Positions 38,276 to 51,978 of a DNA stretch of 64,000 bases are shown here, piece after piece. The position numbers and the translations under genes are program-made. Within the stretch, counting starts at the first letter, position 1; each line of letters opens with the position of its first letter. The notes below the pieces were generated by a model. That model ran no database searches. It was not told the origin of the DNA and saw only the letters and a list, made by a program, of their open reading frames with translations. The stretch is from an uncultured bacterium (GTDB taxonomy: Bacteria; Patescibacteriota; Patescibacteriia; CAIQCM01). The stretch spans positions 643,740-707,739 of the forward strand of contig OY970181.1 in assembly GCA_963708045.1 (NCBI GenBank). The letters run 5' to 3'.

Positions 38276-38284
38276 TTCGCGTTT

Positions 38285-38330
38285 TTCACCCCAACCAAGC
38301 TCGGCTTGGTTGGGGTGAAGTTATATTTTC
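38285..38330 (+). terminator. rho-independent terminator
   Basis: Perfect 16-bp stem 'TTCACCCCAACCAAGC-TCG-GCTTGGTTGGGGTGAA' followed by a T-rich tail. Confidence 0.65.
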
Positions 38331-38387
38331 GTCACAAAGAGTGCACTTTACAAAGGAAATCGGTTTGCGCTATAGTTTTATCTTGAA

Positions 38388-38930
38388 ATGCTAAGACTTT
38401 TTGCGAAAACCTTGCGCACGGGAATAATCACCGAATCTCCCTCAAAGATTCGTGATTTTAATTTAGAAAATTTTGAAATAATCGGCGGCAATATTAAGAA
38501 ACTCGTGGACGAACTTTACGGCGGCCGCGCTTTGCGGATTCGCCACGTGGATGCCGGTTCAACCAATGCGGAAGAACTAGAACTCACTGCACTCGGGAAT
38601 CCGTATTACGACCTTGAACGTTTTGGTTTGTCGTTTACCGCTTCGCCAAGGCATGCCGATATTTTGACCGTTTCGGGTCCCGTAACGCGCAATATGGAAC
38701 ACGCGCTAAAAGTCGCTTATGAAATGACGCCCGAACCGAAGATAGTAGTTGCGGTGGGGGATGGGGCGATAACGGGCGGTATCTGGAATGGATCTTATGC
38801 AATCGTGGGACCGGTTCACGCAGTTATTCCGGTTGACGCAAAAATCCCCGGCGATCCGCCGTCGCCCCTCGCGATAATGAAAGGCTTGCTTTCGGCTTTG
38901 CAAACCGTCAAAGATAAAAAAGATGTTTAA
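38388..38930 (+). CDS. NuoB / hydrogenase small-subunit homologue with no cysteines
   Basis: 'YDLERFG', 'ASPRHADILTVSG', 'MTPEPKIVVAVGDGAITGG', 'IPVDAKIPGDPP' align to NuoB; every cluster-ligand Cys is replaced (CC to GS, C to G, C to D). Confidence 0.8.
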   Translation: MLRLFAKTLRTGIITESPSKIRDFNLENFEIIGGNIKKLVDELYGGRALRIRHVDAGSTNAEELELTALGNPYYDLERFGLSFTASPRHADILTVSGPVTRNMEHALKVAYEMTPEPKIVVAVGDGAITGGIWNGSYAIVGPVHAVIPVDAKIPGDPPSPLAIMKGLLSALQTVKDKKDV

Positions 38931-40932
38931 TCAAAACACGATTTCCTATTTGTTTTTTGCGGCAACGGCCTTGTCACTCGCGGCTGGAATTTTTGGTTTG
39001 TTTGGAAAAAATTCAAAAGCCTTTAATACCGTGGTTGGTGTTTTAAATATGGCGGGCGCGCTCGCGCTGGCTGTGTCCGCCGGCAGTTTTTTATTTTTGC
39101 AGGATCGCGGTTTGTTTGCGGTAGGGGACGCTCGCCTGATTGATCTTTCACACCTCGTGCCGTTTATTGGTTCGCGCGCTCTCTCTTTGGATATGCTCTC
39201 GGCCTATTTTCTTTTGCTTGTCGGCCTTGGTGTTTTTCTTGTTTCTTGGTTTGGAATATTTTATTTGCCGCGCTACAAAGAACAGTATCGTTTCCCTTGG
39301 CTTCACATTGCGACGGCGCTGTTTATTTTTGGAATGGAAATTACCGTTGTCGCCGGAACGCCGTTGGTTTTTCTTTTTGCTTGGGAAATAATGTCGTTTG
39401 CCGCGTATTTTTTGGTGATTGCCGACCGCAAAGCCGAATCGGTTAAAGCTGGTTTTTCTTATATCATTATGACCCAGCTTGGCGCCGCTTGTTTGCTTGC
39501 TGGTTTTGCGATTGTTTCGGGTGGTAATATGAACGCGCTGCTTTCTGGTTTGCAATTAGCGCCGGGCGCGGCGGCGGTTGCCGGCTTGGTTTTGCTGATC
39601 ATTGGTTTTGCCGCCAAGGCCGGTATTTTCCCGTTTCACGAATGGCTTCCACTCGCGCATCCGCAAGCGCCGTCGTCAGCTTCGGCACTTATGAGCGGCG
39701 TGATGCTTAAGGTGGCGCTTTACGGACTTTTGCGAACACTCCAAACGATCGCCCATTTTTCTCTACCTCTCTCTGTGGTTCTCATCATTATCGGCTTTGC
39801 GCTTTTTACTGCGTTTTACGGCGCACTGATGGCGGCGGTGGAAACCGACCTTAAACGAACTTTGGCTTGGAGTTCGGTTGAAAATATGGGGTTAATGTTT
39901 GCGATGGCTGGCACGGTTACTTTTTTGGTGCAACTTGGCGCGATGGATGCCGCGGGCGCCGTTTGGATCGCGCTTTTTGTTTTTGCCTTTTGCCATATGC
40001 TTTTTAAGTCGGGTTTGTTTATGGCCGCGGGCGCGCTTATTTCGGAAACACATACGCGTGACCTTGATCTAATGGGTGGACTGGCGAAAAAGTGGCCGGT
40101 TTTCTCGGGTTGGTTTTTATTGCTCGCGCTTTCGGCCGCCGCCTTGCCGCCGGCGGGAACGTTTTATGCGGAATGGATTTTCTTAACGACGGCGGGCGCG
40201 GTTGCGAGCGCTGGCGCGGTTGTCGGATTTATTTTTGTAATCATAATTTCTATTTTTGCTTTGGCCGCTGGTTTAGCTGCGTTTGCAATGATTAAAGTTT
40301 TTGCCGCCGCGTTTCTTGCAAAGCCGCGGAGTGAACATTCGGAACACGCCAAAAGAATGCCAAAAGCGCTTTATGCGCCAGCGGCCGTCGCCGCCGCTTT
40401 GTGCGTTGGCCTTGGTTTGGCACTTCCATATTTTTTGCGCGGCTTATGGCCAAGCGCGGAACGCGTGGTATTTTCTAACGCTTCGCTTATCGCTAGTGGC
40501 GCAAAACTTTCGCCCTTGTTTGTTGCCGCGGCCTTTGTCTTTGTCGCACTTGGCGTTTGGCTGATTCGTTTAGCTTTTAACCGACGCAAGATTCGCATTA
40601 CGGATACCTGGGACTGCGGCGCGCCGCTAACAGCTCGTATGGAATACACGGCAACGGCTTTTTCCGCGCCGCCGCGTTTCTTTTTCCGCGCCTTTACTTT
40701 GCCTTGGAAAAAAATGTCCGTCACGCCAGTTACATTGGGAAACAAATGGATCGCGCAAAAAAAATTGGAGCACGGCACAAAAATGCTCGCCGAGCGCTTT
40801 CTTTATCAACCGGTCGCAATGACGCTTGACCGTCTTTCGGGCGGCGTAAAACTGATGCAAAATGGTGTGGTTCAGTTTTATCTGGCGCTTATCTTTGTTG
40901 CTTTGGTCGTAACGCTTATTGTTGCCCTATGA
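38923..40932 (+). CDS. NuoL/MrpA/HyfB-like antiporter-type membrane subunit
   Basis: 'FPFHEWLPLAHPQAPSSASALMSGVMLKVALYGLLR' hallmark motif; 669 aa and about 16 TM helices; ATG overlaps upstream stop. Confidence 0.8.
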   Translation: MFNQNTISYLFFAATALSLAAGIFGLFGKNSKAFNTVVGVLNMAGALALAVSAGSFLFLQDRGLFAVGDARLIDLSHLVPFIGSRALSLDMLSAYFLLLVGLGVFLVSWFGIFYLPRYKEQYRFPWLHIATALFIFGMEITVVAGTPLVFLFAWEIMSFAAYFLVIADRKAESVKAGFSYIIMTQLGAACLLAGFAIVSGGNMNALLSGLQLAPGAAAVAGLVLLIIGFAAKAGIFPFHEWLPLAHPQAPSSASALMSGVMLKVALYGLLRTLQTIAHFSLPLSVVLIIIGFALFTAFYGALMAAVETDLKRTLAWSSVENMGLMFAMAGTVTFLVQLGAMDAAGAVWIALFVFAFCHMLFKSGLFMAAGALISETHTRDLDLMGGLAKKWPVFSGWFLLLALSAAALPPAGTFYAEWIFLTTAGAVASAGAVVGFIFVIIISIFALAAGLAAFAMIKVFAAAFLAKPRSEHSEHAKRMPKALYAPAAVAAALCVGLGLALPYFLRGLWPSAERVVFSNASLIASGAKLSPLFVAAAFVFVALGVWLIRLAFNRRKIRITDTWDCGAPLTARMEYTATAFSAPPRFFFRAFTLPWKKMSVTPVTLGNKWIAQKKLEHGTKMLAERFLYQPVAMTLDRLSGGVKLMQNGVVQFYLALIFVALVVTLIVAL

Positions 40933-41852
40933 ACACGGTAAATTTAATTATCAGCACAGTTATTATTATTCTTCTCGCGCCGCTTTTTACCGGCTTGATT
41001 CGGAAATTTAAAGCGTTTTTTGGTAATCGCCGCGGCGCGCCCTTGCTTCAGCCATATCGTTCGCTGGCCACGCTTACAAAAAAAGAAATGACGATATCTG
41101 AACACGCAAGCTGGGTGTTTCACGGCGTACCGTTTGTTGTTTTGGGTTGTGCAATTTTTGTGGCCGTGATTGTTCCGACGTTTTTTGCGAGCGGTGTCAC
41201 AATTGGCAATTTATTTTTACTCTCCGCGGTTTTGATGATCGGCGCTTGTGCTTTAGTTTTGGGTGGAATGGACACAGCCTCGGCTTTTGGCGGAATGGGT
41301 GCTAGCCGCGAAATGACCATTGCCGCGCTGACCGAGCCAGTGCTTGTTCTTGCGCTGGTTGCGCTTGGTGCGACGACTGGTTCGTGGACTGCGGGTGGAG
41401 TGCTACAGGAAATGGCTTTGGCGCCGTGGTGGCTGGTGCATCCGTTTATGGTGCTCGTCTTTGGCGCTTTGGCGATGATTGTTTTGGCCGAAGGCGCGCG
41501 CTATCCGGTTGATAACCCGACCACCCACCTTGAACTCACAATGGTTCACGAAGCAATGGTGCTTGAATATTCTGGTCCGTATTTGGCGATGCTTGAATAT
41601 GCGGCGGCTTTAAAATATGCCGTGCTCGCCGTTTTCTTCGTTAACTTAGTCGTGCCTTATAGTGTTTGGGGCGCGGGCGCGACGCTTACTGCTGGCATTA
41701 TCGGTTTTGCTGTTAAGTTTATTTTGGCCGCGTTCCTTACAGCGTTTCTTGAATCAATGGTTGCCAAAATGCGCTTCTACCGCTTGCAAGAATATTTTAC
41801 GGCTGCTTACTTGCTCGTATTTTTTGGTTTTTTACTTTCCTTGATGTTCTAA
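40929..41852 (+). CDS. NuoH/HycD-like membrane subunit
   Basis: 'GNRRGAPLLQPYRSLATLTKKE' loop resembling NuoH 'R.GP...QP..D..KL..KE'; 8 TM helices; ATGA overlap. Confidence 0.7.
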   Translation: MNTVNLIISTVIIILLAPLFTGLIRKFKAFFGNRRGAPLLQPYRSLATLTKKEMTISEHASWVFHGVPFVVLGCAIFVAVIVPTFFASGVTIGNLFLLSAVLMIGACALVLGGMDTASAFGGMGASREMTIAALTEPVLVLALVALGATTGSWTAGGVLQEMALAPWWLVHPFMVLVFGALAMIVLAEGARYPVDNPTTHLELTMVHEAMVLEYSGPYLAMLEYAAALKYAVLAVFFVNLVVPYSVWGAGATLTAGIIGFAVKFILAAFLTAFLESMVAKMRFYRLQEYFTAAYLLVFFGFLLSLMF

Positions 41853-41856
41853 AGCT

Positions 41857-42513
41857 ATGACTGCTGACACTTATCGTTTATTGGTTGATATCCTCGCAGG
41901 TGTGATGCTTGTTTCTGGAGTTTTTATGCTTGGTCGCGTTCGCGTCCGCTCGCTTTTGCGTTTCTTTGCCGTGCAATCGTTCGCGCTCGCGCTTGTCGCC
42001 GCGGCAAGTGCGATCTTTGAAGGGCGTTGGCACCTAATGGCGACAGCGATTCTTGTTTTTGCTATAAAAACAATTTTTTTGCCGCTGTTTATGGTCTCGG
42101 TTATGGCCAAAGGGCGCATTTACGAACGGCTGGTTTTTGCAATGCGTCCGGCACTGTCAATGTTTGTCGGCGCGATAATGGCAGTGCTTGGTTTTTATCT
42201 GACGGCTTCGCTTATTCCCGAACTTGGCGATAATTTTTTCGTGGTTGCAGTTTCGGTTTCCATTGCCCTTGTTGGTCTCCTAATGCTTATGACGCGCAAA
42301 GGACTCTACGGCCAAATCGTCGGCTTCCTAATTTTAGAGAACGGGATTTTTACTTTGGGGATGGCGCTTACCGGAGGGATGCCGCTCATTGTTGAGGTTG
42401 GAATATTTTTTGACGTAACCGTTGGCGCGATTATTATGGCCTTGCTTTCATATCGCGTTCACAGCGAAAGCCGCCGCGCTGACACTGAGTATTTGGAAAC
42501 TCTTATTGACTAG
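41857..42513 (+). CDS. HyfE/NuoK-family small membrane subunit
   Basis: 218 aa with 6-7 TM helices, no Cys-rich motif; position and size match HyfE. Confidence 0.5.
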   Translation: MTADTYRLLVDILAGVMLVSGVFMLGRVRVRSLLRFFAVQSFALALVAAASAIFEGRWHLMATAILVFAIKTIFLPLFMVSVMAKGRIYERLVFAMRPALSMFVGAIMAVLGFYLTASLIPELGDNFFVVAVSVSIALVGLLMLMTRKGLYGQIVGFLILENGIFTLGMALTGGMPLIVEVGIFFDVTVGAIIMALLSYRVHSESRRADTEYLETLID

Positions 42514-42516
42514 CTT

Positions 42517-43977
42517 ATGTATATAATTTTTGCCGTCCTAGCCGCCGCCATCACCGCCCTTGTTTGTCTTTTTGCGCGGAATTATCGCGCGCTCACGATC
42601 TCGGCCGTTAGCGGATCGTTTGTTGTTTTTGCCTTCGCGCTCATTTCCATCGGCGCTTGGTTTGGTTTTATTCCGGGGAGTATGGCTTGGCTTAAGTTTG
42701 ACGGGTTTGGCGCGGTGATGTTGGCGCTCGTTGCCGTCGTGCAACTTTTTGCGACCATTTCAAGCGTTCCGTATTTGCGCGCGGAAATAGAAGAGGGGAC
42801 GGTTACTTTTTCGCAAGCGCGTTGGTATAACGCGCTAATTCCAGCCTTTGTCATTTCAATGATCCTCGCGGTTTCGGTTGATTCGCTTGGTCTTATGTGG
42901 ATTGCGATGGAAGGCACGACGCTTGCGACGACAATGCTTGTAGCTTTTTATACAAAAGAAGGTTCGCTTGAAGCGGCTTGGAAATATATTCTCGTTTGCT
43001 CGGCCGGCATTGCGATTGGTTTGATTGGCGTTCTCCTTATCTTCTATGCCGCTTTTTTGGGAAGCGGCAGCGAAACCGTTTCCATAACTTGGACAAGCCT
43101 TTTGGCGTCGGCGCACTTGTTGCCGCCGGCAGTTGTTAAATTGGCGTTCGTTTTTGCTTTCATCGGTTTTGGCACCAAAGTCGGAATGGTGCCAATGCAT
43201 ACTTGGCTTCCCGATGCCCATGGCAGGACGCCGTCGCCGGTTTCGGGAATGCTTTCGGCTGTGCTTTTGCCAATCGCGCTTTTGATTATTTATCGTGCCA
43301 AGGTGGTTGTTGATGCCGTTCTTGGCTCGGCTGACTGGAGCAATGGTTTCTTTATTTTCTTTGGCGCGCTTTCGGTTGCCGTGTCGGTTTGTTTTATGGT
43401 GAGGCAAAAAAACTACAAGCGCCTGCTCGCTTATTCCTCCATAGAACATATGGGCTTTGCGGTTTTTGCCTTAGGCTTTGGAAAGCTCGGTGTAATTTTT
43501 GCGATGATTCACATTATCGGCCATGCCCTAATTAAATCGGCACTCTTCTTTGGCACGGGTAATATTTTGATCGCCTATAAAAGCACCAAGTTTGACAAGG
43601 TGGCGATGGTTGCCAAATATTTGCCAAGACTCTCTGTACTTTTTGTCATTGCCTTGCTAATGCTTTTGGCCGTACCGCCGTCGCCGCTTTTCTTTTCCGA
43701 GCTGGGAATTTTTGCGCTGGGTTTTGGCACGCATCCGCTCGCTTCAGCCATCGTGCTCGCCGCTTCGGTTATCGCCGCTGGTTCGTTTTTTATGAATTTT
43801 ATTCCGATGTTTTTTCTTGGTCACGACGACGCCCGGCCGACGCATAAAGAAGTTGAACATTGGAACGCGACGCATACGGCGATTGCGGCCGGTTTGGTTT
43901 TAGCCGTGGCTTTTGGTGTGTCGCTTCTCGCTGGTTCTGGCCGCGAAATGCTTGCTCAAATTATTTCAATCATCTAG
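42517..43977 (+). CDS. NuoN/NuoM/HyfF-like antiporter-type membrane subunit
   Basis: 'MVPMHTWLPDAHGRTPSPVSGMLSAVLLPIALL' hallmark motif; 486 aa. Confidence 0.8.
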   Translation: MYIIFAVLAAAITALVCLFARNYRALTISAVSGSFVVFAFALISIGAWFGFIPGSMAWLKFDGFGAVMLALVAVVQLFATISSVPYLRAEIEEGTVTFSQARWYNALIPAFVISMILAVSVDSLGLMWIAMEGTTLATTMLVAFYTKEGSLEAAWKYILVCSAGIAIGLIGVLLIFYAAFLGSGSETVSITWTSLLASAHLLPPAVVKLAFVFAFIGFGTKVGMVPMHTWLPDAHGRTPSPVSGMLSAVLLPIALLIIYRAKVVVDAVLGSADWSNGFFIFFGALSVAVSVCFMVRQKNYKRLLAYSSIEHMGFAVFALGFGKLGVIFAMIHIIGHALIKSALFFGTGNILIAYKSTKFDKVAMVAKYLPRLSVLFVIALLMLLAVPPSPLFFSELGIFALGFGTHPLASAIVLAASVIAAGSFFMNFIPMFFLGHDDARPTHKEVEHWNATHTAIAAGLVLAVAFGVSLLAGSGREMLAQIISII

Positions 43978-43982
43978 ACATT

Positions 43983-45542
43983 ATGGAAATAAAAGATATT
44001 GTCGCCGAACTTAAACTTGTCGCGCCGGAAAAGAAAACCGAATCCGAGCCGGTTTTTGACGTTGCTCGCGAAAACATTGCCGTGCTTGCCGACAAGCTTG
44101 TAAATAGTCTTGGCTTGTCGCTCGCGCAAATGTTTGCCGTGGAAGAAAAACGCGGCGTTTCGTTTTCGCTTTATGTGGTTTTTCGCACGAACGGAGCAGT
44201 GCCGTATTTTTCTTTGCGCACCGCGATACTAGCAAACGATCCGCACTACCCGTCGCTTACGGCGCACGTTATGGCGGCACATTGGTATGAACGCCTAATT
44301 CAAGATATGTTCGGCTTGGTTGCCGACGGTCATCCTGATTCGCGGCGCTTAGTTCATCACGAAAATATTCCCGCGGCCACACATCCGCTCCGAAAAGATT
44401 TTTCGTGGAACGAAAAGCTCGCGCACGCGAGCGAACCGTACCCAATGCATCGCGTGGAAGGCAAGGGGATTTATGAAATTCCCGTTGGCCCAATTCACGC
44501 CGGCATTATTGAACCGGGACATTTTCGTTTTAATGTCATTGGCGAACGGGTTATAACACTGGAGGGAAAATTATTTTTCAAACACAAAGGCGTGGAAAAA
44601 ATTTTGGAGGGCAAAACGCCGACCGAAGCCCTGCCGTTTGTTGAACGCGTTTCTGGCGATATGGCCGTGGGTCACACTTTGGCTTTTTGCCAAGCCGTAG
44701 AAACTATCGCCGGGACGAAAGTTTCAGGGCGGGCAAAGTATTTGCGCGTCGTCCTTTCCGAGTTTGAACGCGTCATAATGCACTTGCACGATATTTCCAA
44801 CATCGGCGGCAACGGCACGGCGCTTTCGTTTATGTTTGCCCAAGGCTCAAGATTAGTTGAACGCGAACGTCGTCTTGCGGAAAAACTTTTTGGCCATCGC
44901 TTTTTGCGCGGCAACATTATTCCAGGCGGTGTTACGCACGACCTAGACGCCACCCAAGCCAACGAATTAACGGTTGAGTTGGAATATATCAGAAAAGAAA
45001 TTGACGCCCTAGAAAAAATCGCTCGCAATTCGGACAGTTTTATGGAGCGACTTGAAACCACTGGCATCCTTAAACAAGACGCCGCGATCGCTTATGGCGC
45101 AGTTGGACTTCCGGCACGAGCCTCCGGCCTTACCTGGGACGTCCGCCTTGGCGCGCCGTATGCCGCCTACAACAAATTAAGCCCAATCATTAAAGTGGAA
45201 CAGTCCGGCGACGTTTACGCCAGATTTATTATGCGCTTCCGCGAAATTCGCGAAGCCATTCGTTTAATTAAAGAAGCGCTTGCAACTATGCCTACTGGCT
45301 CACTTGCTACTAGCTTTGTGCCACAAGCTGGCAGCGCGCTTGGATATGCCGAAAGCTGGCGCGGCGAAATATTAGACTGGGTCAAACTAGACAAAGACGG
45401 CCGCATTGACCGCTGCGTTATCCGCGACCCAAGCTTCTGCAACTGGTCCCTCTTCAGCGAACTAACCCCCGGCAACATCGTCCCCGACTTCCCAATCTGC
45501 AACAAAAGTCTGAACTTGTCGTATTCGGGGAATGATTTGTAG
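43983..45542 (+). CDS. NuoC-NuoD fusion / HycE-like large subunit lacking NiFe-ligand cysteines
   Basis: N-terminal NuoC-like 'YERLIQDMFGLVADGHPDSRRL'; NuoD/hydrogenase core 'GPIHAGIIEPGHFRF'; L1 position reads 'ERVSGDMAVGH' (not R.CG.C...H); C-terminal 'DPSFCNW' instead of DPCxxC. Confidence 0.8.
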   Translation: MEIKDIVAELKLVAPEKKTESEPVFDVARENIAVLADKLVNSLGLSLAQMFAVEEKRGVSFSLYVVFRTNGAVPYFSLRTAILANDPHYPSLTAHVMAAHWYERLIQDMFGLVADGHPDSRRLVHHENIPAATHPLRKDFSWNEKLAHASEPYPMHRVEGKGIYEIPVGPIHAGIIEPGHFRFNVIGERVITLEGKLFFKHKGVEKILEGKTPTEALPFVERVSGDMAVGHTLAFCQAVETIAGTKVSGRAKYLRVVLSEFERVIMHLHDISNIGGNGTALSFMFAQGSRLVERERRLAEKLFGHRFLRGNIIPGGVTHDLDATQANELTVELEYIRKEIDALEKIARNSDSFMERLETTGILKQDAAIAYGAVGLPARASGLTWDVRLGAPYAAYNKLSPIIKVEQSGDVYARFIMRFREIREAIRLIKEALATMPTGSLATSFVPQAGSALGYAESWRGEILDWVKLDKDGRIDRCVIRDPSFCNWSLFSELTPGNIVPDFPICNKSLNLSYSGNDL

Positions 45543-45602
45543 TCAAACAAAACAAATTTACATCGTTTTGTGGTGTTAGGTGTATTCTATAAACACCAAC
45601 TG

Positions 45603-45634
45603 AAACACGGCCTTGATTAAAGGTCGTGTTTTTG
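45603..45634 (+). terminator. hairpin terminator after the hydrogenase-like operon
   Basis: 'AAACACGGCC-TTGATTAAA-GGTCGTGTTT' (one G-U pair) followed by TT. Confidence 0.55.
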
Positions 45635-45657
45635 TATATGCTAGGTCATATTTGATT

Positions 45658-46038
45658 ATGTCTCACCCTACCGTAGGAATAATTTGTTCAACCATATCGG
45701 ATTTTTCAGTAAAAACACCAGGAGAGACAATCTCGTTCATTTTTAAATATGGGCATTATCCGTGGCGATACATTATTATTGTAATATTAGTAATATTTGT
45801 TTTTTGGGAGTTTAGTACAAGATGGCAGGGGAGAAAATCAGTAAATGGTTTTTCACGAAAATTTAATGTACTGGTAGGAAGTGTAGTTTATATGTTGAAT
45901 CTTTGGCTAGTTGGATATTTAATTAGTTTATTTATAGGCGATTCGGCGGCCTGTATTCCTGAATCCGTCGGATCGTATTTCGTTGCGTTCTTTTTAACCA
46001 AGAAAGAGTTAAGAATAATAGGATTCTGGGTTTATTAA
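45658..46038 (+). CDS. small hypothetical membrane protein (AT-rich island)
   Basis: ATG 45658 'MSHPTVGIICST...'; three hydrophobic segments; about 33% GC. Confidence 0.4.
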   Translation: MSHPTVGIICSTISDFSVKTPGETISFIFKYGHYPWRYIIIVILVIFVFWEFSTRWQGRKSVNGFSRKFNVLVGSVVYMLNLWLVGYLISLFIGDSAACIPESVGSYFVAFFLTKKELRIIGFWVY

Positions 46039-46181
46039 GGAAGATATGTATCTGGGACAGAACTGTGTCATCCTATGTTAATAGAAAAAGGCATTATAGG
46101 GGAGGAGTTGTAATTGATGGTTTAAACGACTACGCTATCAGTGTAACCACTACCGATTTAGAGTCTATATAATTAACCGCA

Positions 46182-48167
46182 ATGAAATCAGAAAAGTCAT
46201 CAAAATTAATTGAACAAATAAATCGTAGAGTGGGGGTAGTCAACCTCTTAGCTCTCTTTAAGGCCGTGATCGTGGGAATATTATCGGCCGAGGCTTTTTA
46301 TGTTGCGAAAGTCATCGCCAATCTGCTAGAAGAAACTATAAAAAGGGCAAATTTTGAAAATTGGGCAATTGCAATCAGTGTTTTATGTCTCGTAATCGTT
46401 GGTATTTATGTGTTTGTGAGGGGACTATTTTTTGACATTTGGAAGATACTGAAAAGTTTACGGTTCGATATATACGTTTCTTTTTTATTGGGAATTTCAA
46501 TCAGCATATCATTCAATGGTATTGGAACAAATTTATATAAAACAATTCTTTCGTACTTAAATATAAGTCAGGTTTTGGTTCTCATCCTTACTCCTATTAT
46601 CGTTGGTTTGCTAATATTAATCCGCGCTGTTTTGGAAGAATTACTCGGCGGGAAAAAAGAAGATCCGTTTTTTATTCCTGACAAGGAAGAAAGATATAAA
46701 AACAACGATCTTCTTGATTATGCCAACCAAGCGACTCTTTTTGCTGAAAGAATATATAATAACGGGTCTGAGAATAGTTTAGTTTTTGGAATCGATGCGC
46801 CGTGGGGTGTTGGTAAATCAACCTTTATAAATTTTTGCATAGAATCATTTGAGGAGAAGAAATACAAAGACCGAGTTGTAGTTTATAGATTTAACCCATT
46901 GAGATACGAGGATCGGACAAATCTACTCGAAAAATTTATTGATGGATTAATAACGACTATTCAAAAAAATACATTTGCACCAGAAATTAGACCATTGATT
47001 TCGCATTACTCACGGATTATTAAGTCTAAGGTTTCGGCACCTATTTCATTTTTTGGTATCGGAATAAAATTATCTCCTGGAACCTACACGGTTGATGACG
47101 CTTTTAATGATTTAGAGTCAGCTTTAAAAAACCTTAAGAAAAAAATTGTTATAATTGTTGACGATTTGGATCGTCTTGAGCTTTCGGCAATAAAAGATGT
47201 TCTTTTTACTCTAAAAACGAGTTTTAATTTACCGAATGTGTCCTATGTTATTTGTTATGACACAGAAAATATTGCAACTTTAAACTATGGTAGCCCGGAC
47301 GATGATAAATTAATGGAGTTTTTTGAAAAATTTGTAAATGTCAAGGTAAGTCTCTTTATTGATAATAAGATACTCGAAAAATATGTTACAGATAATTTTA
47401 ATATTGCCCTACAAAATAATCTTGGAACAAATCCCATAACGCGTGAAAAAATACGAGAAGCCATTTGTGAGTTGGTAAATATATACAAATCGCAAGAAGC
47501 TCATTTGTACCAGTCATTTATTGGTGACATTAGAAAATTGAAAAGACTCATTAATACGATAATGCTTTTAAAAATCGAAGAGACTGATTTTGGAAATAGC
47601 GATTTTGACAAAAGTGATTTGGTTCATCTTTTATTGATATACATAAATTACCCGAATATTTTTCGAAAAATATATAATACTGAAACAGGCGGCAAGAGAA
47701 GATTCTTTTCGGTCGTCGCCCCACATGAGGATGGTTTTATTGGAATACCCGGCCAGCGTTCAGAGGATGGGCAATATGAAAATTCCACATACTATAAGGA
47801 ATACTTAAAGAGCCTAAATGATAATCAACGCTTTCTTTTAAATAAAATCTTTGATGTTACTAAACGATTGCCTGATACTCGTCGGATTGATTCGGTATCG
47901 CCAACGATAAAAAAATCTTATGCATGTTTTAATGGCGGTTGGGGTGCGGGGAAAAACCTTGAAGAATACCTTCATCTCATTGTTAAATTAGTGAAACCAC
48001 AAAAAAGAGGTCAGTATAAATTTTATTTGAATGCACGGGATAAGGTGAAAGGCGGAACAAGCCCCGAGGCCATTTTTAAATCAGAGAAAGATTTTAGTTT
48101 TTCTGAAAGCGAGAACAGTCATCTTCAATTCTGGAACATAATAATGGATACCGCCAACGATCTCTGA
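46182..48167 (+). CDS. KAP-family P-loop NTPase with N-terminal 4-TM domain
   Basis: KAP Walker A 'GIDAPWGVGKSTF'; Walker B 'IVIIVDDLDRLE'; four N-terminal TM helices; AT-rich. Confidence 0.75.
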   Translation: MKSEKSSKLIEQINRRVGVVNLLALFKAVIVGILSAEAFYVAKVIANLLEETIKRANFENWAIAISVLCLVIVGIYVFVRGLFFDIWKILKSLRFDIYVSFLLGISISISFNGIGTNLYKTILSYLNISQVLVLILTPIIVGLLILIRAVLEELLGGKKEDPFFIPDKEERYKNNDLLDYANQATLFAERIYNNGSENSLVFGIDAPWGVGKSTFINFCIESFEEKKYKDRVVVYRFNPLRYEDRTNLLEKFIDGLITTIQKNTFAPEIRPLISHYSRIIKSKVSAPISFFGIGIKLSPGTYTVDDAFNDLESALKNLKKKIVIIVDDLDRLELSAIKDVLFTLKTSFNLPNVSYVICYDTENIATLNYGSPDDDKLMEFFEKFVNVKVSLFIDNKILEKYVTDNFNIALQNNLGTNPITREKIREAICELVNIYKSQEAHLYQSFIGDIRKLKRLINTIMLLKIEETDFGNSDFDKSDLVHLLLIYINYPNIFRKIYNTETGGKRRFFSVVAPHEDGFIGIPGQRSEDGQYENSTYYKEYLKSLNDNQRFLLNKIFDVTKRLPDTRRIDSVSPTIKKSYACFNGGWGAGKNLEEYLHLIVKLVKPQKRGQYKFYLNARDKVKGGTSPEAIFKSEKDFSFSESENSHLQFWNIIMDTANDL

Positions 48168-48184
48168 ACTCAAAAACGGCGTCT

Positions 48185-49227
48185 GTGCTAATTGATTATC
48201 TACTTAACCACATTACAGATTATTCATTATTTAAAAACGCCGAATTGGGGGTTGGGTTGAGACATGAATTAAACTTATATCTTGTAAAATTACTTAATGA
48301 TGCTGGTTGGTCAGATCAGAATGGGGAGCATTACAATAATATTGGTAATAATTTATCAGAAATTGCTGATTGGATATTCGGTGAAAATCAACATCTTGGT
48401 AGCGGTGTACTCAATTTGTTGAGCAAGGAAGATCGTGGCGTTTTTGGACTTTACGACCTTCTCGCGTTTCGATTGTTTTGTAGTGCCGATAGGAATGGTG
48501 GGGTATATCACATTCAAGAGGCGTTATCTAAACACGGGAATCCCGACGCGATAACAAGTGGTTCGGTAAATGATATCGCGATTGGCGAGATGCGTGAGAT
48601 ATCACAAAGGGTGTTTAAAATTTTTAAAAGTCAGTATATCGAAAAAGAAGATAAATATTTTTGATGTGATTGATAAAATTACATTGGAAGATATTTCGGG
48701 TAAGTACTTAGATTATATTAATAGTAATATCTCTTCCGGAAAGGTTAAAAATGTAAACGAAACGGTCTCCGGATTAAAATCAAATCTTAAATCATTCATA
48801 ATTTATCAACTTGGAAATTCATTGATAAGCCTCGGGGTCGGTTGCGGTTATTATGACCCAACTGGAAATGAAGATAAAAAGGGTATCAAATTACAAATCA
48901 ATGATTATATTTTTGGGATTTGTTTCGAACCGTCAGATGATGATAAATATGAACATTTCTTAGACTACTTGTTAATAAATTTATCTCACAACTCTCCATT
49001 AGATCCGAGAAGTGTATTCTCTCCAAATGTAAATGAATTTACTAAAGTTCTCGAAAAAAGAAAAACTTATTAACTACTGGGAAAAACACGGCGCAAAAAT
49101 TAAAGAACTCAATTTCCCGGCTAAAGAAAAAACTATATTCACCCCGAACTATTCGGCTACATATAAGGAAGATTTATCAAATGTTTATAAAGTTCTTGAT
49201 GATTTAATTAACGAACAAATTAAATAA
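48185..49227 (+). pseudogene. candidate frame-shifted gene (three consecutive overlapping ORFs in frames 2, 0 and 1) of unknown function
   Basis: ORFs 48185..48664, 48570..49073 and 49033..49227 overlap head-to-tail at homopolymer runs (T5 near 48655; A6 and A5 near 49055); no motif recognised. Confidence 0.35.
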
Positions 49228-49252
49228 CTGTGACAGGATCGTTTGTTAATGT

Positions 49253-49822
49253 ATGTTAAATTCACAACGTGTTTATTGGGAAAATTACAAAAAAGAAATC
49301 ATAGATTCCGTGAACGTTTTGATTGAAAAAGGGCATTATAACGCCGCCGCTAAATTAATTTTATTAGGCATAGATAGTGTGGCTGGATTTTACATGGGCA
49401 GAGTGGAAAATGGATTTATAACAAAATCATTCAGTGGGTTTGTAGAAAAATATATGTGGAAATTTAATGACGTTAATTTCCCGACAAAAGGGGTTGTGTT
49501 GATTAATCGTAAGACTGGATATAGGTTCAATAAACCAAGCGAGGTACTTTACCATGTAATTCGTAATGGCTTTATTCATGATGGATTTGTAGGAATCGGT
49601 ATTGAAATATATAAAGATTTAGATTCAAGGGTATTATGGAGCGGTTCGGGTTTTAATATTTTCAGGCTAAACATTGTAGGATTTTTTGAGTACTTTAAAA
49701 TATCTCTCGTAAATTACGAGAATGATTTGAATACAGATACTGTTTTGATGCAAAAATTCGTTAATAAATATAATGATATAAACTTTTTTTCTTTTGGTTC
49801 TTTAAAAACGAAGAAGGCGTGA
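49253..49822 (+). CDS. hypothetical protein (AT-rich island)
   Basis: 189-aa ORF with AT-rich codon usage; no recognised motif. Confidence 0.4.
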   Translation: MLNSQRVYWENYKKEIIDSVNVLIEKGHYNAAAKLILLGIDSVAGFYMGRVENGFITKSFSGFVEKYMWKFNDVNFPTKGVVLINRKTGYRFNKPSEVLYHVIRNGFIHDGFVGIGIEIYKDLDSRVLWSGSGFNIFRLNIVGFFEYFKISLVNYENDLNTDTVLMQKFVNKYNDINFFSFGSLKTKKA

Positions 49823-49889
49823 CTCTTCGTTTTTGCTATCCACTCGCCCTACACCAATACTAAAATAAAAAATACAGTACACTTTTGAC

Positions 49890-49940
49890 TGTACACGTTT
49901 TCATCCGGCCGGATGAAAACGTGTACAGTAAAATTTTTTT
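49890..49940. terminator. perfect 38-bp palindrome plus T-run (strong bidirectional terminator-like element)
   Basis: 'TGTACACGTTTTCATCCGG|CCGGATGAAAACGTGTACA' then 'GTAAAATTTTTTTT'; A-run upstream. Confidence 0.6.
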
Positions 49941-49945
49941 TGTTT

Positions 49946-49995
49946 CCGTCTCACGGTTGTCTCGGGTGGGACAACGGTGAGGCGGGGAGTTTTTG
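49946..49995 (+). terminator. second strong hairpin plus T-run
   Basis: 'CCGTCTCACGGTTGTC-TCGGGTGG-GACAACGGTGAGGCGG' (16-bp stem, one mismatch) then 'GGAGTTTTTG'. Confidence 0.45.
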
Positions 49996-50133
49996 CAAAT
50001 TTAAACTGATTCTAGTGTTGTTGAACGGAATTAAAAAAAGGTAGACCCTTTTGTGTCCTTTTTTAATTTATCAATTCGTTATAATAATGTAATATAACAA
50101 TTATCACTAAGGTAATTTAAATGTGACTAAAAT

Positions 50134-50883
50134 ATGACACCAGAAAAAGCCGGCCGAGGAGCGATAATGCTCAAATACGCGGCAATAGGTGAGTGTGTGT
50201 CGTTCGTAGCGACGCTGTTTTTCGTCGTTGTCACTTCGTATACGGCGTACGTGTTCAAATTTTTCAGTCCGTCCGCGTTCAATAAAGTAATAATATTTTT
50301 TGTAGCGTTGCTGGTTTGGCAAGCATCATCGGCGACTTACCGGATTTGGAAAAGGAATTCGGTAATTAAGAACAACGCCCTCCAGTCGGCCAAGCCGCCG
50401 GTTCCCCAAACGCCGCTTTCACCGGATGAAAAAGCCGTTGTCGTCGTTGCGCCTATCAGCTGGCGCAAATTTCCTGATTTTCGAAATCAAAATGAGTACC
50501 GCTCCATTTATCCTTCATGGTTTCCGCAGAACTCGCTCATCATCACCGACCGCGGATTGTTGTTCGTTTATGCGCCGTTATACTTGGGCGACCAGATGTT
50601 CGGCAAAAAGGTTTCGGTTGCTGATAGTAATTTTGTCTGGGCCGATAAACTGATCGTCGCAAAAATTCATGATCTGCTGGAGAAGAATTCGCTCAAAGAA
50701 GTTTACGAAAGCTACCCGGCAAATTTCCGCTTGGGTTTTGACGAAATTGAATCGATCCAGCATCCCGATCTTCCGTACATACTTCTGATCAAGCTAAAAA
50801 ACGGCTCACGTTTTATCGTTACCGTCAGATCAAGCGACGATTACGAAAAGGCCAGGCAGGTGTTGGGACAGAAGGGTTTTTAA
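50134..50883 (+). CDS. hypothetical membrane protein (2 N-terminal TM helices plus soluble C-terminal domain)
   Basis: 249-aa ORF in a GC-richer segment; no recognised motif. Confidence 0.45.
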   Translation: MTPEKAGRGAIMLKYAAIGECVSFVATLFFVVVTSYTAYVFKFFSPSAFNKVIIFFVALLVWQASSATYRIWKRNSVIKNNALQSAKPPVPQTPLSPDEKAVVVVAPISWRKFPDFRNQNEYRSIYPSWFPQNSLIITDRGLLFVYAPLYLGDQMFGKKVSVADSNFVWADKLIVAKIHDLLEKNSLKEVYESYPANFRLGFDEIESIQHPDLPYILLIKLKNGSRFIVTVRSSDDYEKARQVLGQKGF

Positions 50884-51082
50884 AAGAATTAAGAAAAAAC
50901 TAAAGCGAAAACGAAGGGGGTACACTCCTTCGTTTTTGGTATATTGACACGAAAATGTTTTTCGGTTAATGTAAAACGTTTTGAAAGATAAGGAGAGAAC
51001 ATGAACAAGCCAGTACCAGGAAACGACGTGAAATCGGCTTTTATCGCCGTCCAAATACGGCGGATGTGCGACAGATCTCTGT

Positions 51083-51664
51083 GTGTCCGAAGCAAAGCGG
51101 CTGGGCCTGAGCGATCTGCATAGCCAACTCGTGGCCGGTCACGGGCAGATGCATATACGAAACAGCTTGGCCGAGGCAGGGGAGGGCGTTGTAGATGTCG
51201 GCGAAATCTATGAGTTCGTGCGCTCTGTGGTCGTGATGGCCGCAGCGCATTTCCACGACCTTGAACAACTTGAGGCTGGGTGGGCAATGACGCTCTATCC
51301 GAGCATGGATATCATGCTGTTTGTTTGGGCGCGCGCCAAACGTTCTGGAACGAACGGCCTAGGCGCCTGCATCAAACTGCGTGACGAATTTCGCGTGCGC
51401 AACGAGGCAATCGCCAAGGTCGTCATCGGACATCTGCTTCGTTCCATGGATTCTACGGAACACGTTGAGACCTACACGGGCGCGTTCGCCGGGGAGATCG
51501 CTTTTCGCGTTTCCGACTACGCTGAATCGCTTCTTGAAGAGCTGCCGCCAGTTGCGGTCGATTTTCAGGAGCCTGCCAACGGCTTGGAAGCGCTCGAAAA
51601 TGTTCGACGAAGGCATTGCTCTTATTCCGGACGAGGACCTGCCGATCCTTCCTTACGAGATTAA
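51083..51664 (+). CDS. hypothetical protein (uncertain; GC-rich segment with overlapping ORFs)
   Basis: 193-aa GTG-initiated ORF; an upstream ATG at 51001 with a strong AAGGAGAG RBS is in another frame and stops after 40 codons, so the gene may be frame-shifted. Confidence 0.3.
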   Translation: MSEAKRLGLSDLHSQLVAGHGQMHIRNSLAEAGEGVVDVGEIYEFVRSVVVMAAAHFHDLEQLEAGWAMTLYPSMDIMLFVWARAKRSGTNGLGACIKLRDEFRVRNEAIAKVVIGHLLRSMDSTEHVETYTGAFAGEIAFRVSDYAESLLEELPPVAVDFQEPANGLEALENVRRRHCSYSGRGPADPSLRD

Positions 51665-51978
51665 CGCCATTGACTGCGTTAATGCGTTCATGCGCGAGAT
51701 GCTGTCGCAAGCGGGCCGGCCAGCTGGCAGTATGGGGATCGTCAACCTCGAACCGCTCGAAAACGATTGGAAGGCATGTGGCGAAATACGCCTTTATCGC
51801 CTTGGGTCTGCCGCTCCACTGAGGATCGGCAACGGCTTACGCCACGCGAATGGGAGGATCCTTCGGGATCCTCCAATTTTTTTTGTCAGCATCCACACGG
51901 TGAGGCGAAGTTTGTGTGATATTTGACAAACGATTCCTTACAGTGTAAAAAATTCCCAGGACAACAACAGGAGTACCA

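Follow-up and report, generated by a model that had tools for sequence, protein, structure and literature searches.

An AT-rich island in a Patescibacteria genome carrying a KAP-family NTPase gene apparently broken by three insertions

The island, its edges and its small genes

The window, by which we mean the whole 64,000-nucleotide stretch analysed, contains a segment at ~45,500-50,250 in which GC content is 0.31-0.37, against 0.44-0.57 on both sides; the mean is 0.337 in the island (45550-50130) versus 0.458 in the remaining window. This GC scan agrees with the initial annotation, which had described an AT-rich island of about 33-35% GC between flanks of about 45-55%. The island and its edges hold the following features.

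45602..45637, plus strand: terminator-like hairpin of the intrinsic type (13-bp stem, 5-nt loop, U-run), left island edge
45613..46038, plus strand: TM141, a small gene inside the island with two predicted transmembrane (TM) helices (ORF list, hydrophobicity)
46182..49227, plus strand: KAP-family P-loop NTPase gene, probably now a pseudogene, ancestrally ~1,013 codons, in four frame segments
46230..46628, plus strand: N-terminal membrane anchor of four predicted TM helices (Kyte-Doolittle scan)
46788..47174, plus strand: KAP core, Walker A to Walker B (motif positions, PF07693)
49253..49822, plus strand: orf189, an intact gene of 189 aa (ORF list, family alignment)
49803..49988, plus strand: three stacked terminator-like hairpins (folds and terminator scan), right island edge
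49803-49835: first of these hairpins, overlapping the orf189 stop (fold z=-2.7)
49888-49929: middle hairpin, a 42-bp perfect palindrome followed by T8 (fold z=-7.2)
49943-49988: third hairpin, GC-rich (fold z=-4.0)

At the left side, GC falls directly past the stop codon (45540-42) of a nuoCD-like gene. The hairpin previously reported at 45.6 kb is present there, at 45602-45632, and terminates the upstream hydrogenase-like operon; the fold of 45540-45650 has an energy of -32.2 kcal/mol (z=-3.8). The palindrome at the right edge is perfect, as had been claimed, but is 42 bp long rather than 38, and it has no second copy in the window.

Rather than being syntenic and conserved in relatives, the island and its KAP gene were missing 3' of the conserved hydrogenase-like operon from every one of the 18 related Patescibacteria loci compared, ~13 of which reach several kb beyond the conserved gene. 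No recombinase gene was found within the island itself. Together, the GC anomaly and the absence from the 18 loci support a foreign origin of the island. The 4.6-kb AT-rich segment (~45,550-50,130) is probably DNA that a Patescibacteria (CPR) genome acquired horizontally, with insertion just 3' of a conserved hydrogenase/complex-I-like operon.

The two small genes flank the KAP gene. Depending on whether TTG 45613 or ATG 45658 is the start codon, TM141 encodes 141 or 126 aa; it has a GC content of 0.34 and gave no match in Pfam, PHROG, NCBIfam or PADLOC. Its product is identical in two independent Logan assemblies. No relatives were found beside the 6 intact KAP homologues, and TM141 is not a conserved KAP partner. 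The product of orf189, previously called an orphan, belongs to a rare family of ~185 aa; a search of 1.84 billion proteins yielded ~20 cluster representatives (best 58% identity). In the family alignment, R104 and H109 are invariant within FRNGLIHEG, an Rx4H motif. The predicted model is of high confidence (pLDDT 89.7), and a fold search returned HEPN/AbiV matches at noise level only; orf189 is possibly HEPN-like. One significant match was obtained, to a phage protein without a name. Its relatives adjoin DUF3800, HNH, Schlafen and T5orf172 genes. Because 6 KAP contexts contained no orf189 relative and 10 orf189 loci no KAP gene, orf189 is independent of KAP and not its partner.

One KAP gene in four frame segments

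The 661-aa ORF at 46182..48167 matches PF07693 (KAP_NTPase) over residues 180-462 (E=1.5e-44, 152.9 bits). Walker A is GIDAPWGVGKST (residues 203-214, nt 46788-46823) and Walker B is IVIIVDDLDR (residues 322-331, nt 47145-47174), and the interval between them carries no TM insert. G192, G194, K195 and D310-R314, in the numbering of the homologue P0002, are invariant in the family. TM helices are predicted at residues 17-35, 61-79, 97-115 and 131-149 (Kyte-Doolittle), and in the AlphaFold model of P0002, which is 65% identical to the window KAP, residues 3-140 form long helices. The domain match and the hydrophobicity scan bear out the initial annotation of a transmembrane KAP NTPase with four N-terminal TM helices.

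Downstream, ORFs at 48185..48664, 48570..49073 and 49033..49227 overlap head-to-tail in three frames. The initial annotation preferred to see in these a distinct companion gene (~350 aa, two frameshifts) and offered as its fallback that they supply the C-terminal part lacking from a larger KAP protein. Nearly all of the 120 closest KAP homologues listed are 990-1,060 aa in size, and nearly all of them cover 96-100% of the 661-aa ORF. In tblastn, full-length P0002, P0003, P0006 and P0035 run colinearly across this ORF and then the three small ORFs, and close homologues align in segments at 46182-48164, 48164-48646, 48645-49064 and 49039-49221. Since the homologues are ~1,000-1,050 aa long and colinear over all four frame segments, 46182..49227 is a single KAP gene of ~1,013 codons and the "companion" is its own C-terminal third. 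The small ORFs did not prove to be independently conserved genes: short matches to the companion region are fragments on short contigs whose alignments also run into the N-terminal part.

Frameshift junctions were placed by MAFFT alignment with >30 homologues.

46182-48164, 48167-48645, 48647-49058 and 49060-49227, plus strand: the four KAP frame segments (MAFFT junctions)
48162..48167, plus strand: lesion 1, inferred +2 insertion (CT), GATCTGAAC becoming GATCT[CT]GAAC
48642..48646, plus strand: lesion 2, +1 A (A4 to A5), from MAFFT alignment with homologues
49054..49059, plus strand: lesion 3, +1 A (A5 to A6), from MAFFT alignment with homologues

Lesion 1 sits at CTCT 48162-65, outside any homopolymer, and homologue HSPs join at 48164. 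The added CT displaces the reading frame by +2 and generates the TGA (48165-67) at which the 661-aa ORF seems to end; where homologues read ..NSA-YEF-DSK.., the window reads DTANDL/NSKTAS (slash, junction). At lesion 2, homologues have QYIEKNKNIFDLID and the window QYIEK/KINIFDVID over two frames. The insertion lies in the A-run 48642-46, not in the T-run near 48658, so that the homopolymer suspected near 48655 was not the right one. Lesion 3, in contrast, was correctly anticipated near 49055: it falls in the A6 run 49054-59, where EFTKVLEREKLxxYW of the homologues becomes EFTKVLEK/EKLINYW over two frames. Of the earlier account, the three-frame overlap therefore stands, but not the claim that every break is at a homopolymer, and three frameshifts replace two. 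The one that had been missed makes the TGA of the 661-aa ORF, and with it the fallback reading proves correct.

Undoing the +2, +1 and +1 insertions gives back family-consensus residues exactly and yields 1,013 aa with no internal stops. In the intact protein the C-terminal region is ~550 aa, all-helical and without known domain. As the gene stands, lesion 1 would truncate the product at residue 661, leaving lesions 2 and 3 in an untranslated remainder.

Origin and age of the lesions

We consider it likely that the locus is a foreign island with one KAP gene broken by three insertions, whose intact form would, by analogy, be an anti-phage NTPase. The ratio of C-part to N-part identity is 0.887 in the repaired KAP and 0.889 +/- 0.04 in the family, and highly conserved columns are kept after repair in both the C-part (55/56) and the N-part (124/127). 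A C-terminal third as conserved as in intact relatives points to a very recent inactivation.

Counting runs of 4 nt or longer, indels affect 2 of 26 homopolymer runs in the KAP C-part and 0 of ~1,440 in other window coding sequence (Fisher p=3e-4). The window holds six lesions, three in KAP and three in a neighbour gene at 51.0-51.8 kb; all are insertions, five are +A on one strand, and no substitution-level decay accompanies them. In the neighbour gene, the first lesion lies outside homopolymers, and two of the three are absent from a Logan allele.

Two Logan assemblies cover the locus, and the lengths of 9 neighbouring genes are identical in both and in the window. ERR12035931 repeats lesions 2 and 3, with exact 167-aa and 64-aa ORFs at equal offsets, although an important caveat is that this agreement is not fully independent if ERR12035931 reads underlie the window assembly. 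In ERR15459707, where the KAP pieces adjoin identical TM141 and orf189, gene coordinates alone give a KAP ORF open for 818 codons, past the point of lesion 1, and a 194-codon terminal ORF continuous across the lesion 3 site to the natural stop; judged by these coordinates, neither lesion 1 nor lesion 3 appears to interrupt the allele, which also speaks for a recent inactivation. At the A-run of lesion 2, the two ERR15459707 contigs break. Exact look-ups of the partial products predicted for this assembly (194 aa and 71 aa) gave no match, and databases seldom keep products truncated at a contig end.

These observations bear on whether the gene is instead intact in the organism, the three insertions being consensus errors confined to an accessory region on a long contig. 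That all six lesions are insertions, +A in 5/6, fits localised consensus error, as do the conservation of the repaired protein, the read-through of lesions 1 and 3 in ERR15459707, and a neighbour gene with similar lesions, two of them missing from a Logan allele. However, no frameshift occurs in ~55 kb of other window coding sequence with its ~1,440 homopolymer runs, and this sequence includes orf189 and the KAP N-part (2 kb), both of the same composition. Lesion 1 and the first neighbour-gene lesion are outside homopolymers, and the affected runs are short (A3-A5); such runs are not known to be typical error sites on current sequencing platforms. The independently built ERR12035931 assembly, with the caveat above, and the exact match of neighbouring gene lengths also argue against error. 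We therefore regard an artefact as rather unlikely, and the lesions as probably the result of biological decay.

Alternatively, the 661-aa product, which comprises the TM anchor, the full NTPase core and some of the helical region, could still be expressed and kept for a function; this would account for why no KAP lesion lies outside the final 35% of the gene. Across its 1,983 bp, which contain 67 homopolymer runs, the N-part is unbroken and retains its conserved columns as given above, and three lesions would all fall in the last 35% with P=0.043. Given lesion 1, however, the probability that the other two lie downstream is a non-significant 0.12, and an intact N-part is expected anyway because the inactivation is so recent. 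Deletion of the C-terminal region also abolishes defence in EF_KAP (PMC13552941). A retained short product seems improbable to us.

A complete 661-aa NTPase with a twice-frameshifted ~350-aa companion would match the ORF layout (TGA at 48165, GTG start at 48185), and in the databases several entries, 210-550 aa in size, have matches to the companion region alone. Those entries lie on 1-7 kb contigs or are flagged partial, and they reach into the N-part (47628-48173). Single proteins of ~1,000-1,050 aa that span both parts make up nearly the whole list of the 120 closest full-length relatives, the family consensus continues through the junction residues, and the 818-codon ORF of ERR15459707 spans the supposed boundary. 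Homologue lengths, colinear alignment and junction residues thus refute a two-gene system. Defence genes are sometimes phase-variable, and A-runs hold two of the three lesions, but restoring the full-length protein by programmed frameshifting, transcriptional slippage or phase variation is scarcely credible, as it needs three separate corrections (-2, -1, -1) at runs of 5-6 nt, far below known slippage/contingency tracts, plus a CT duplication with an in-frame TGA, and such shifts occur in none of the homologues examined.

Putative function and known systems

Intact KAP homologues are single-gene cassettes, mostly from Patescibacteria and also from other uncultivated lineages. A large serine recombinase is found in 3 of 6 contexts, adjoining the gene in L020 and L026 and 3 kb off in L021. 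Other homologues lie next to a type III-like R-M pair, relaxase and coupling protein (L019), a conjugation ATPase (L022), an HTH gene (L024/25) or, on a Burkholderia plasmid, integrases and an AIPR protein. GC of the KAP gene is below both flanks in 5 of 6 distinct homologue loci. These contexts are mobile/defence contexts, and through them and the literature the suggested link to defence islands gains indirect support.

The main island cargo is one gene for a ~1,013-aa protein with four TM helices, a KAP core and a helical C-terminal region, which we hypothesize to have acted as a single-protein, membrane-anchored anti-phage NTPase by analogy to the EF_KAP class, PifA and Tmn. The C-terminal region may serve to detect infection, to exert the effect or both, and NTP hydrolysis that depends on Walker A/B may drive a response at the membrane, probably with oligomerisation. 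Because EF_KAP loses defence without its C-terminal region, the truncated 661-aa product is most likely non-functional.

In PADLOC, the best matches of the window KAP are PifA (E=1e-27), PDC-S20 and QatA, and no phage-defence HMM spans its full length. PifA, the F-plasmid KAP NTPase that excludes phage T7, shares the KAP core, but within the NTPase domain the match is limited to the N-terminal half (model positions 13-228 of 720), and the two proteins have unrelated C-terminal regions. PifA is described as acting at the membrane, with depolarisation and nucleotide leakage, and has no TM helices (PMC13001434). QatA of QatABCD, likewise a KAP-type ATPase, matches weakly at the N terminus (NCBIfam NF041923, E=1e-9) but reaches 37 bits where the curated cut-off is 600, and no QatB, QatC or QatD neighbours were found in the window or the KAP homologue contexts.

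The protein had no sequence-level match to any solved structure. With the full-length model, Foldseek ranked RdrA, the RADAR ATPase (PDB 8hr8, 8fnu), best (E=1e-6 over ~900 columns), then ORC/Cdc6 and NLR/Apaf-1 STAND ATPases. RdrA likewise has a P-loop core followed by helical domains and forms ring oligomers, but TM-scores are low (0.20-0.29), and RdrA is a soluble protein with the deaminase RdrB as its partner, whereas no RdrB-like gene is present here. Tmn is also a membrane-anchored P-loop NTPase with a helical/solenoid C-terminal sensor and single-protein defence, coupling ATP turnover to a membrane effect (Mg2+ export, plasmolysis). It belongs to another NTPase family, its TM helices lie inside the P-loop domain after Walker A, whereas all four in the window KAP precede Walker A, and the two share no significant sequence match.

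EF_KAP, of Enterococcus faecalis and others, is an experimentally validated single-gene KAP NTPase defence (PMC13552941, PLoS Biol 2026; preprint PMC12632615), in which Walker B mutation also abolishes defence (PMC13552941). It consists of TM helices, KAP domain and a 322-aa uncharacterised region, and is linked to serine recombinases on mobile islands (PMC13552941; PMC12632615). Compared by described architecture, the window family shares the TM helices, the KAP P-loop NTPase and a large C-terminal region without known domain, as well as the single-gene cassette and the serine-recombinase link. EF_KAP has two TM helices, one inside the NTPase domain, whereas the window family has four, all N-terminal; its C-terminal region is 322 aa against ~550 aa; and the window family comes mainly from Patescibacteria and other uncultivated lineages, its window copy being broken. 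By this analogy, the window gene would be a decaying member of a membrane KAP NTPase class already known to block phages.

A KAP NTPase gene in four frame segments

The 661-aa ORF at 46182..48167, taken in the initial annotation for a KAP P-loop NTPase with four N-terminal transmembrane (TM) helices, bears out that description. It matches PF07693 at 152.9 bits, above the gathering threshold of 20 (E=1.5e-44), over residues 180-462 and profile positions 1-288 of 293, and a hydrophobicity scan places four hydrophobic 19-mers at residues 17-149. Walker A (GIDAPWGVGKST, residues 203-214, pattern GxxxxGKS/T) and Walker B (IVIIVDDLDR, residues 322-331, pattern hhhhDDxD) are intact, and their equivalents are invariant in 70 homologues. 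KAP NTPases are expected to associate with the membrane through two or four TM helices, and have been described with four outside the P-loop domain (PMC13001434); the four helices predicted here would associate the protein with the membrane. An AlphaFold model of P0002, an intact, 65%-identical homologue, has long helices matching the TM segments.

In this model (mean pLDDT 83), a helical membrane bundle at the N terminus precedes the alpha/beta P-loop core (about residues 180-460), and the region beyond it (about 460-1000) is entirely helical. The closest structural neighbor of the model is RADAR's ring-forming ATPase RdrA (E=1e-6 over about 900 columns, with low TM-scores), followed by ORC/Cdc6 and the NLR/Apaf-1 STAND ATPases. 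No sequence match to solved structures was found in the PDB, nor any Pfam domain in the C-terminal region or its fragments. The helical C-terminal domain does carry family-invariant motifs, such as FCSADRGGD and GVGCGYYD.

Searched against 5.8 billion proteins, the 661-aa ORF returned an exact copy of itself; the other 119 closest among the matches listed are nearly all 990-1,060 aa long, with 45-65% identity and 96-100% query coverage. For comparison, 661 plus 347 residues gives about 1,008. When four full-length relatives (P0002, P0003, P0006 and P0035) were aligned to the window by tblastn, they fell into four colinear segments, each in a different frame.

Colinear tblastn segments of the KAP gene
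46182-48164, residues 1 to about 650
48164-48646, residues about 649-808
48645-49064, residues about 808-947
49039-49221, residues about 940-1000

The three ORFs downstream of the 661-aa ORF (48185..48664, 48570..49073 and 49033..49227) overlap in three frames, as noted initially. They had been read as a separate, frameshifted companion gene, with independent small genes as the refuting case, but full-length relatives are colinear over all of the ORFs. The short proteins that match only this region come from small contigs (1-7 kb) or carry a partial flag, and they reach upstream into the part of the gene before residue 661 or so; they are therefore fragments and not independent genes. The fallback offered at the time, that the ORFs are the missing C-terminal part of a larger KAP protein, is the correct one. 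The frameshifts number three instead of the proposed two, and the additional one creates the stop that ends the 661-aa ORF. To place the junctions, the gene was aligned by MAFFT to more than 30 homologues.

Inferred insertions in the KAP gene (+ strand)
48162-65, lesion 1, GATCTGAAC to GATCT[CT]GAAC, +2; family ..NSA-YEF-DSK.. against window DTANDL/NSKTAS
48642-46, lesion 2, A4 to A5; QYIEK/KINIFDVID
49054-59, lesion 3, A5 to A6; EFTKVLEK/EKLINYW

The TGA stop is a product of lesion 1, which does not lie in a homopolymer; judged from sequence, this lesion might conceivably be a 1-nt deletion in a lineage-specific extra codon instead. Removal of the four inserted bases gives an uninterrupted protein of 1,013 aa. 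The locus is a recently pseudogenised KAP NTPase, a single-gene defence candidate. A single KAP NTPase pseudogene is the proper annotation here, in place of a 661-aa KAP protein and three hypothetical proteins, and the same misannotation is likely wherever this 4-TM family of about 1,010 aa is frameshifted.

An AT-rich islet of independent accessory genes

In 500-nt windows, GC content is 0.31-0.37 over about 45,500-50,250 and 0.44-0.57 in the flanks on both sides; the segment 45550-50130 averages 0.337, against 0.458 for the remainder of the window. The AT-rich island described initially is therefore sound, as is the hairpin terminator at its left edge. The palindrome reported at 49.9 kb is present and perfect, but is 42 bp long and not 38.

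Features of the islet and its surroundings
37217-45542, group-4 [NiFe]-hydrogenase/complex-I-like membrane operon
45602-45632, terminator hairpin with a 13-bp stem
45613..46038 (+), TM141, an ORF with two TM helices
46182..49227 (+), KAP gene
49253..49822 (+), orf189
49803-49835, terminator-like hairpin after orf189
49888-49929, perfect palindrome, the middle of three stacked terminator-like hairpins
50134..50883 (+), orf249
50904-50937, terminator-like hairpin after orf249
51001..51822 (+), second broken gene

Three strong hairpins are stacked inside 190 nt (49803-49988). The hairpins that follow orf189 and orf249 share a stem (AAAACGAAG / CTTCGTTTT) and differ in their loops. Flanking direct repeats or att-like sites were sought, with chance-level matches only. 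The window contains no recombinase gene or remnant; no tRNA lies at the island, and the sole Rfam match in the window is a tRNA-Pro at 61.7 kb.

The upstream hydrogenase-like operon has six genes, including NuoB-, NuoL/M-, NuoH- and NuoCD-like ones; in the window, a gene for a CsoSCA-like carbonic anhydrase comes before it. The operon and its gene order are kept in 18 Patescibacteria loci (L001-L018), none of which has KAP, orf189, orf249 or lgt downstream. Nothing 3' of the operon is shared between the window and these loci, which amounts to an absence of synteny and not to an empty site; because these relatives are distant (42-74% amino-acid identity), no empty site can be defined. Both public read sets with Logan assemblies, ERR12035931 and ERR15459707, have the island at the same place. 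We conclude that this is an AT-rich, horizontally acquired islet in a CPR genome.

The intact 189-aa product of orf189 had been called an orphan; it belongs instead to a rare family, of which a search of 1.84 billion proteins yielded 20 representatives. All 20 share an invariant R104 and H109 within FRNGLIHEG, an Rx4H motif that falls within the HEPN pattern Rx4-6H. Its model (pLDDT 89.7) has one significant match, an unnamed phage protein. Foldseek against the PDB gave nothing significant, with AbiV (9bj7) and HEPN proteins (4nqf, 2hsb) at noise level (E=2-8), and Pfam HEPN_Cthe2314 matches one of the 20 members at E=0.044. The family may possibly be HEPN-like. In some relatives (L030 7941..9131; P0140) the orf189 domain is joined to about 200 further residues at its C-terminal end, 380-396 aa in total, so it can be the N-terminal module in larger proteins. 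TM141 has no detectable family. Between the island and the second broken gene, orf249, with two predicted N-terminal TM helices and a host-like GC of 0.47, likewise matches no family.

Intact KAP homologues are single-gene units whose neighbors change between loci.

Neighbors of KAP homologues
L020, L026: large serine recombinase adjoining KAP
L021: large serine recombinase 3 kb from KAP
L019: methyltransferase and ResIII restriction enzyme, relaxase and coupling protein
L022: TraC-like ATPase
L024/25: small HTH gene
L026: also AAA_21/SMC-like ATPase and toxin-antitoxin genes
Burkholderia glumae plasmid: integrases and AIPR protein

The GC content of KAP is below that of both flanks in five of six distinct loci. 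Names on the homologues are mostly Patescibacteria, with Schekmanbacteria, WS5, Zixibacteria and Methylophilaceae also represented. The Burkholderia glumae plasmids NZ_CP100255.1 (H3) and NZ_CP100261.1 (L038) encode a KAP family NTPase with 34% identity and a length of 992 aa. One of the plasmids has KAP in four pieces, another decayed copy; the intact gene adjoins two integrases, an imuA-imuB-dnaE2 mutagenesis cassette and an AIPR protein. Neither KAP nor orf189 was found on phages, nor orf189 on plasmids.

Relatives of orf189, located with a 7-member alignment, adjoin genes for DUF3800, HNH, Schlafen/AlbA_2, T5orf172, trypsin-like peptidase and ADP-ribosylglycohydrolase proteins; the 10 orf189 loci contain no KAP gene. 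Conversely, orf189, TM141 and orf249 were rejected as conserved KAP partners, as tblastn found no relatives of them in six KAP contexts, and an orf189-profile HMM matched none of the small KAP neighbors. With neither family beside the other in these loci, we take the island to be a small mosaic in which the accessory genes are independent, and not an operon-encoded system.

Decay of the KAP allele

We consider the lesions probably real. That a localised assembly artefact made them is unlikely, although every lesion is an insertion, as such an error might leave. Among homopolymer runs of at least 4 nt, two of 26 in the part of KAP after residue 661 or so carry an indel, whereas about 1,440 runs in about 55 kb of other coding sequence have no frameshift (Fisher p=3e-4), and lesion 1 is not a homopolymer event at all. 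An exact 167-aa ORF, running from a start upstream of lesion 2 to the stop made by lesion 3, recurs together with the exact 64-aa ORF, both at unchanged offsets, on a contig of 1,742 bp in the independent Logan assembly of ERR12035931, a read set that may itself be the data behind the window assembly. In Logan sequence from this set, equivalent to 48176..48391, a partial 71-aa gene call stops where the window has CAA (48389-91), which suggests an extra CAA-to-TAA nonsense change in its already broken allele.

ERR15459707 appears to hold the intact form. One contig, of 19.5 kb, has the hydrogenase-like operon of the window together with an identical TM141; its KAP ORF runs on for 818 codons until the contig ends, so lesion 1 is read through. 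Another, of 1,275 bp, has a 194-codon ORF that reaches the natural KAP stop, then an identical orf189; the extra A of lesion 3 is therefore missing, and the terminal fragment predicted without it is exactly 194 aa. The two contigs abut at the A-run of lesion 2, and 818 plus 194 makes 1,012. Neither the 194-aa nor the 71-aa partial product predicted turned up in exact look-ups, although proteins truncated at contig ends seldom enter such records. Intact and broken KAP alleles apparently coexist across public read sets.

After repair, the C-terminal third has a C/N identity ratio of 0.887, compared with 0.889 +/- 0.04 in intact relatives, and 55 of the 56 columns at least 95% conserved in this part are kept. 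Since it is conserved as in intact relatives, the inactivation of KAP, read from sequence, is very recent.

Just right of the island lies a second broken gene (GC 0.53), whose lesions follow the same pattern. Its intact homologues (P0166, P0167) are 271-272 aa long, and three +A corrections are needed to match them.

Insertions in the second broken gene
near 51073, +A, GAC[A]GATCTCTG
near 51600, +A, GAAATG to GAAAATG
near 51760, +A, GAAACG to GAAAACG

In P0165, an allele from Logan (304 aa), the first two sites are intact, and the third has a different lesion. The family is very rare (three clusters among 5.8e9 proteins), with no Pfam match. Together with KAP, this gene fits a small patch of decaying accessory genes, and it feeds the artefact explanation equally. 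The window's six frameshift lesions, all insertions on the + strand (one CT, five A), lie within 3.6 kb (48162-51760); their cause may be either an indel-biased mutation spectrum (e.g., no mismatch repair) or a localised consensus error.

The 8-mer GATCTCTG occurs at 7663, 9038, 18635(-), 48159 and 51074, five times against 0.47 expected from dinucleotide shuffles and about 2 for random sequence of the window's length. Two sites coincide with frameshift lesions. A hotspot of mutation or methylation was considered for them, but their flanks have no further similarity and the two events differ. Phase variation or programmed frameshifting would need three corrections on short runs and was dismissed.

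Proposed function and comparison with known systems

If the preferred reading of real lesions is true, intact and freshly broken alleles in natural populations of one CPR organism would capture defence gain and loss in the reduced genome of an episymbiont; the polymorphism, if confirmed by read-level data, would provide a case from nature in which a defence gene is rapidly lost. The recently validated anti-phage class of TM-KAP proteins with C-termini of unknown function would gain a large, CPR-enriched 4-TM subfamily. P0002 and the repairable window allele provide test material. Pseudogenised defence genes on AT-rich islets are frequent and will not surprise a specialist; follow-up is worthwhile only for the 4-TM KAP subfamily and the apparent intact/broken polymorphism. 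The joint reading, in which the 4-TM KAP of about 1,010 aa, widespread among Patescibacteria and in further uncultivated lineages, is a distinct single-protein membrane defence, its C-terminal domain a new sensor/effector module, allele coexistence a case of defence gain and loss, and orf189 a new HEPN-like RNase family, is possible but doubtful as a whole.

PifA and Tmn illustrate that membrane-associated P-loop NTPases can stop phages, perturbing membrane or ion balance (PMC13001434). From these precedents and the EF_KAP-type proteins, named for a tested Enterococcus faecalis defence protein, we infer a phage-defence role for intact KAP. By analogy, it would be a membrane-anchored, NTP-driven, single-protein defence whose C-terminal helical region may sense infection, execute the response or both. 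The window allele, truncated at residue 661, would be inactive.

The PADLOC match to PifA covers only model positions 13-228 of 720, short of full length, and PifA is without TM helices (PMC13001434), whereas four are predicted here. Tmn and YobI have two TM helices inside the P-loop domain after Walker A; the island protein has no hydrophobic segment from 203-214 to 322-331, and all of its TM segments precede residue 150. QatA of QatABCD scores 37.3 bits against an NCBIfam cut-off of 600, and the neighbors are TM141 and orf189, with no QueC-like or TatD-like genes. RADAR (RdrA/RdrB) offers only distant fold similarity (TM-scores 0.2-0.29), and the island has no deaminase gene.

EF_KAP-type proteins combine TM helices and a KAP NTPase with 322 aa of unknown function; linkage to serine recombinases led to their discovery. 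They shield E. faecalis from phages without being abortive-infection systems, and lose activity on Walker B mutation or C-terminal deletion (PMC13552941; PMC12632615). In the window allele, the C-terminal region is out of frame. Linkage differs in part: L020, L026 and L021 lie near large serine recombinases, whereas the marker in the EF_KAP paper is small ones, and the window has neither a recombinase gene nor a remnant. The 1,013-aa reconstruction and its homologues likewise join TM helices, a KAP NTPase and a large domain-less C-terminal region in one polypeptide, and this shared architecture points to the EF_KAP-type proteins as the nearest experimentally characterised analogues of the island KAP.
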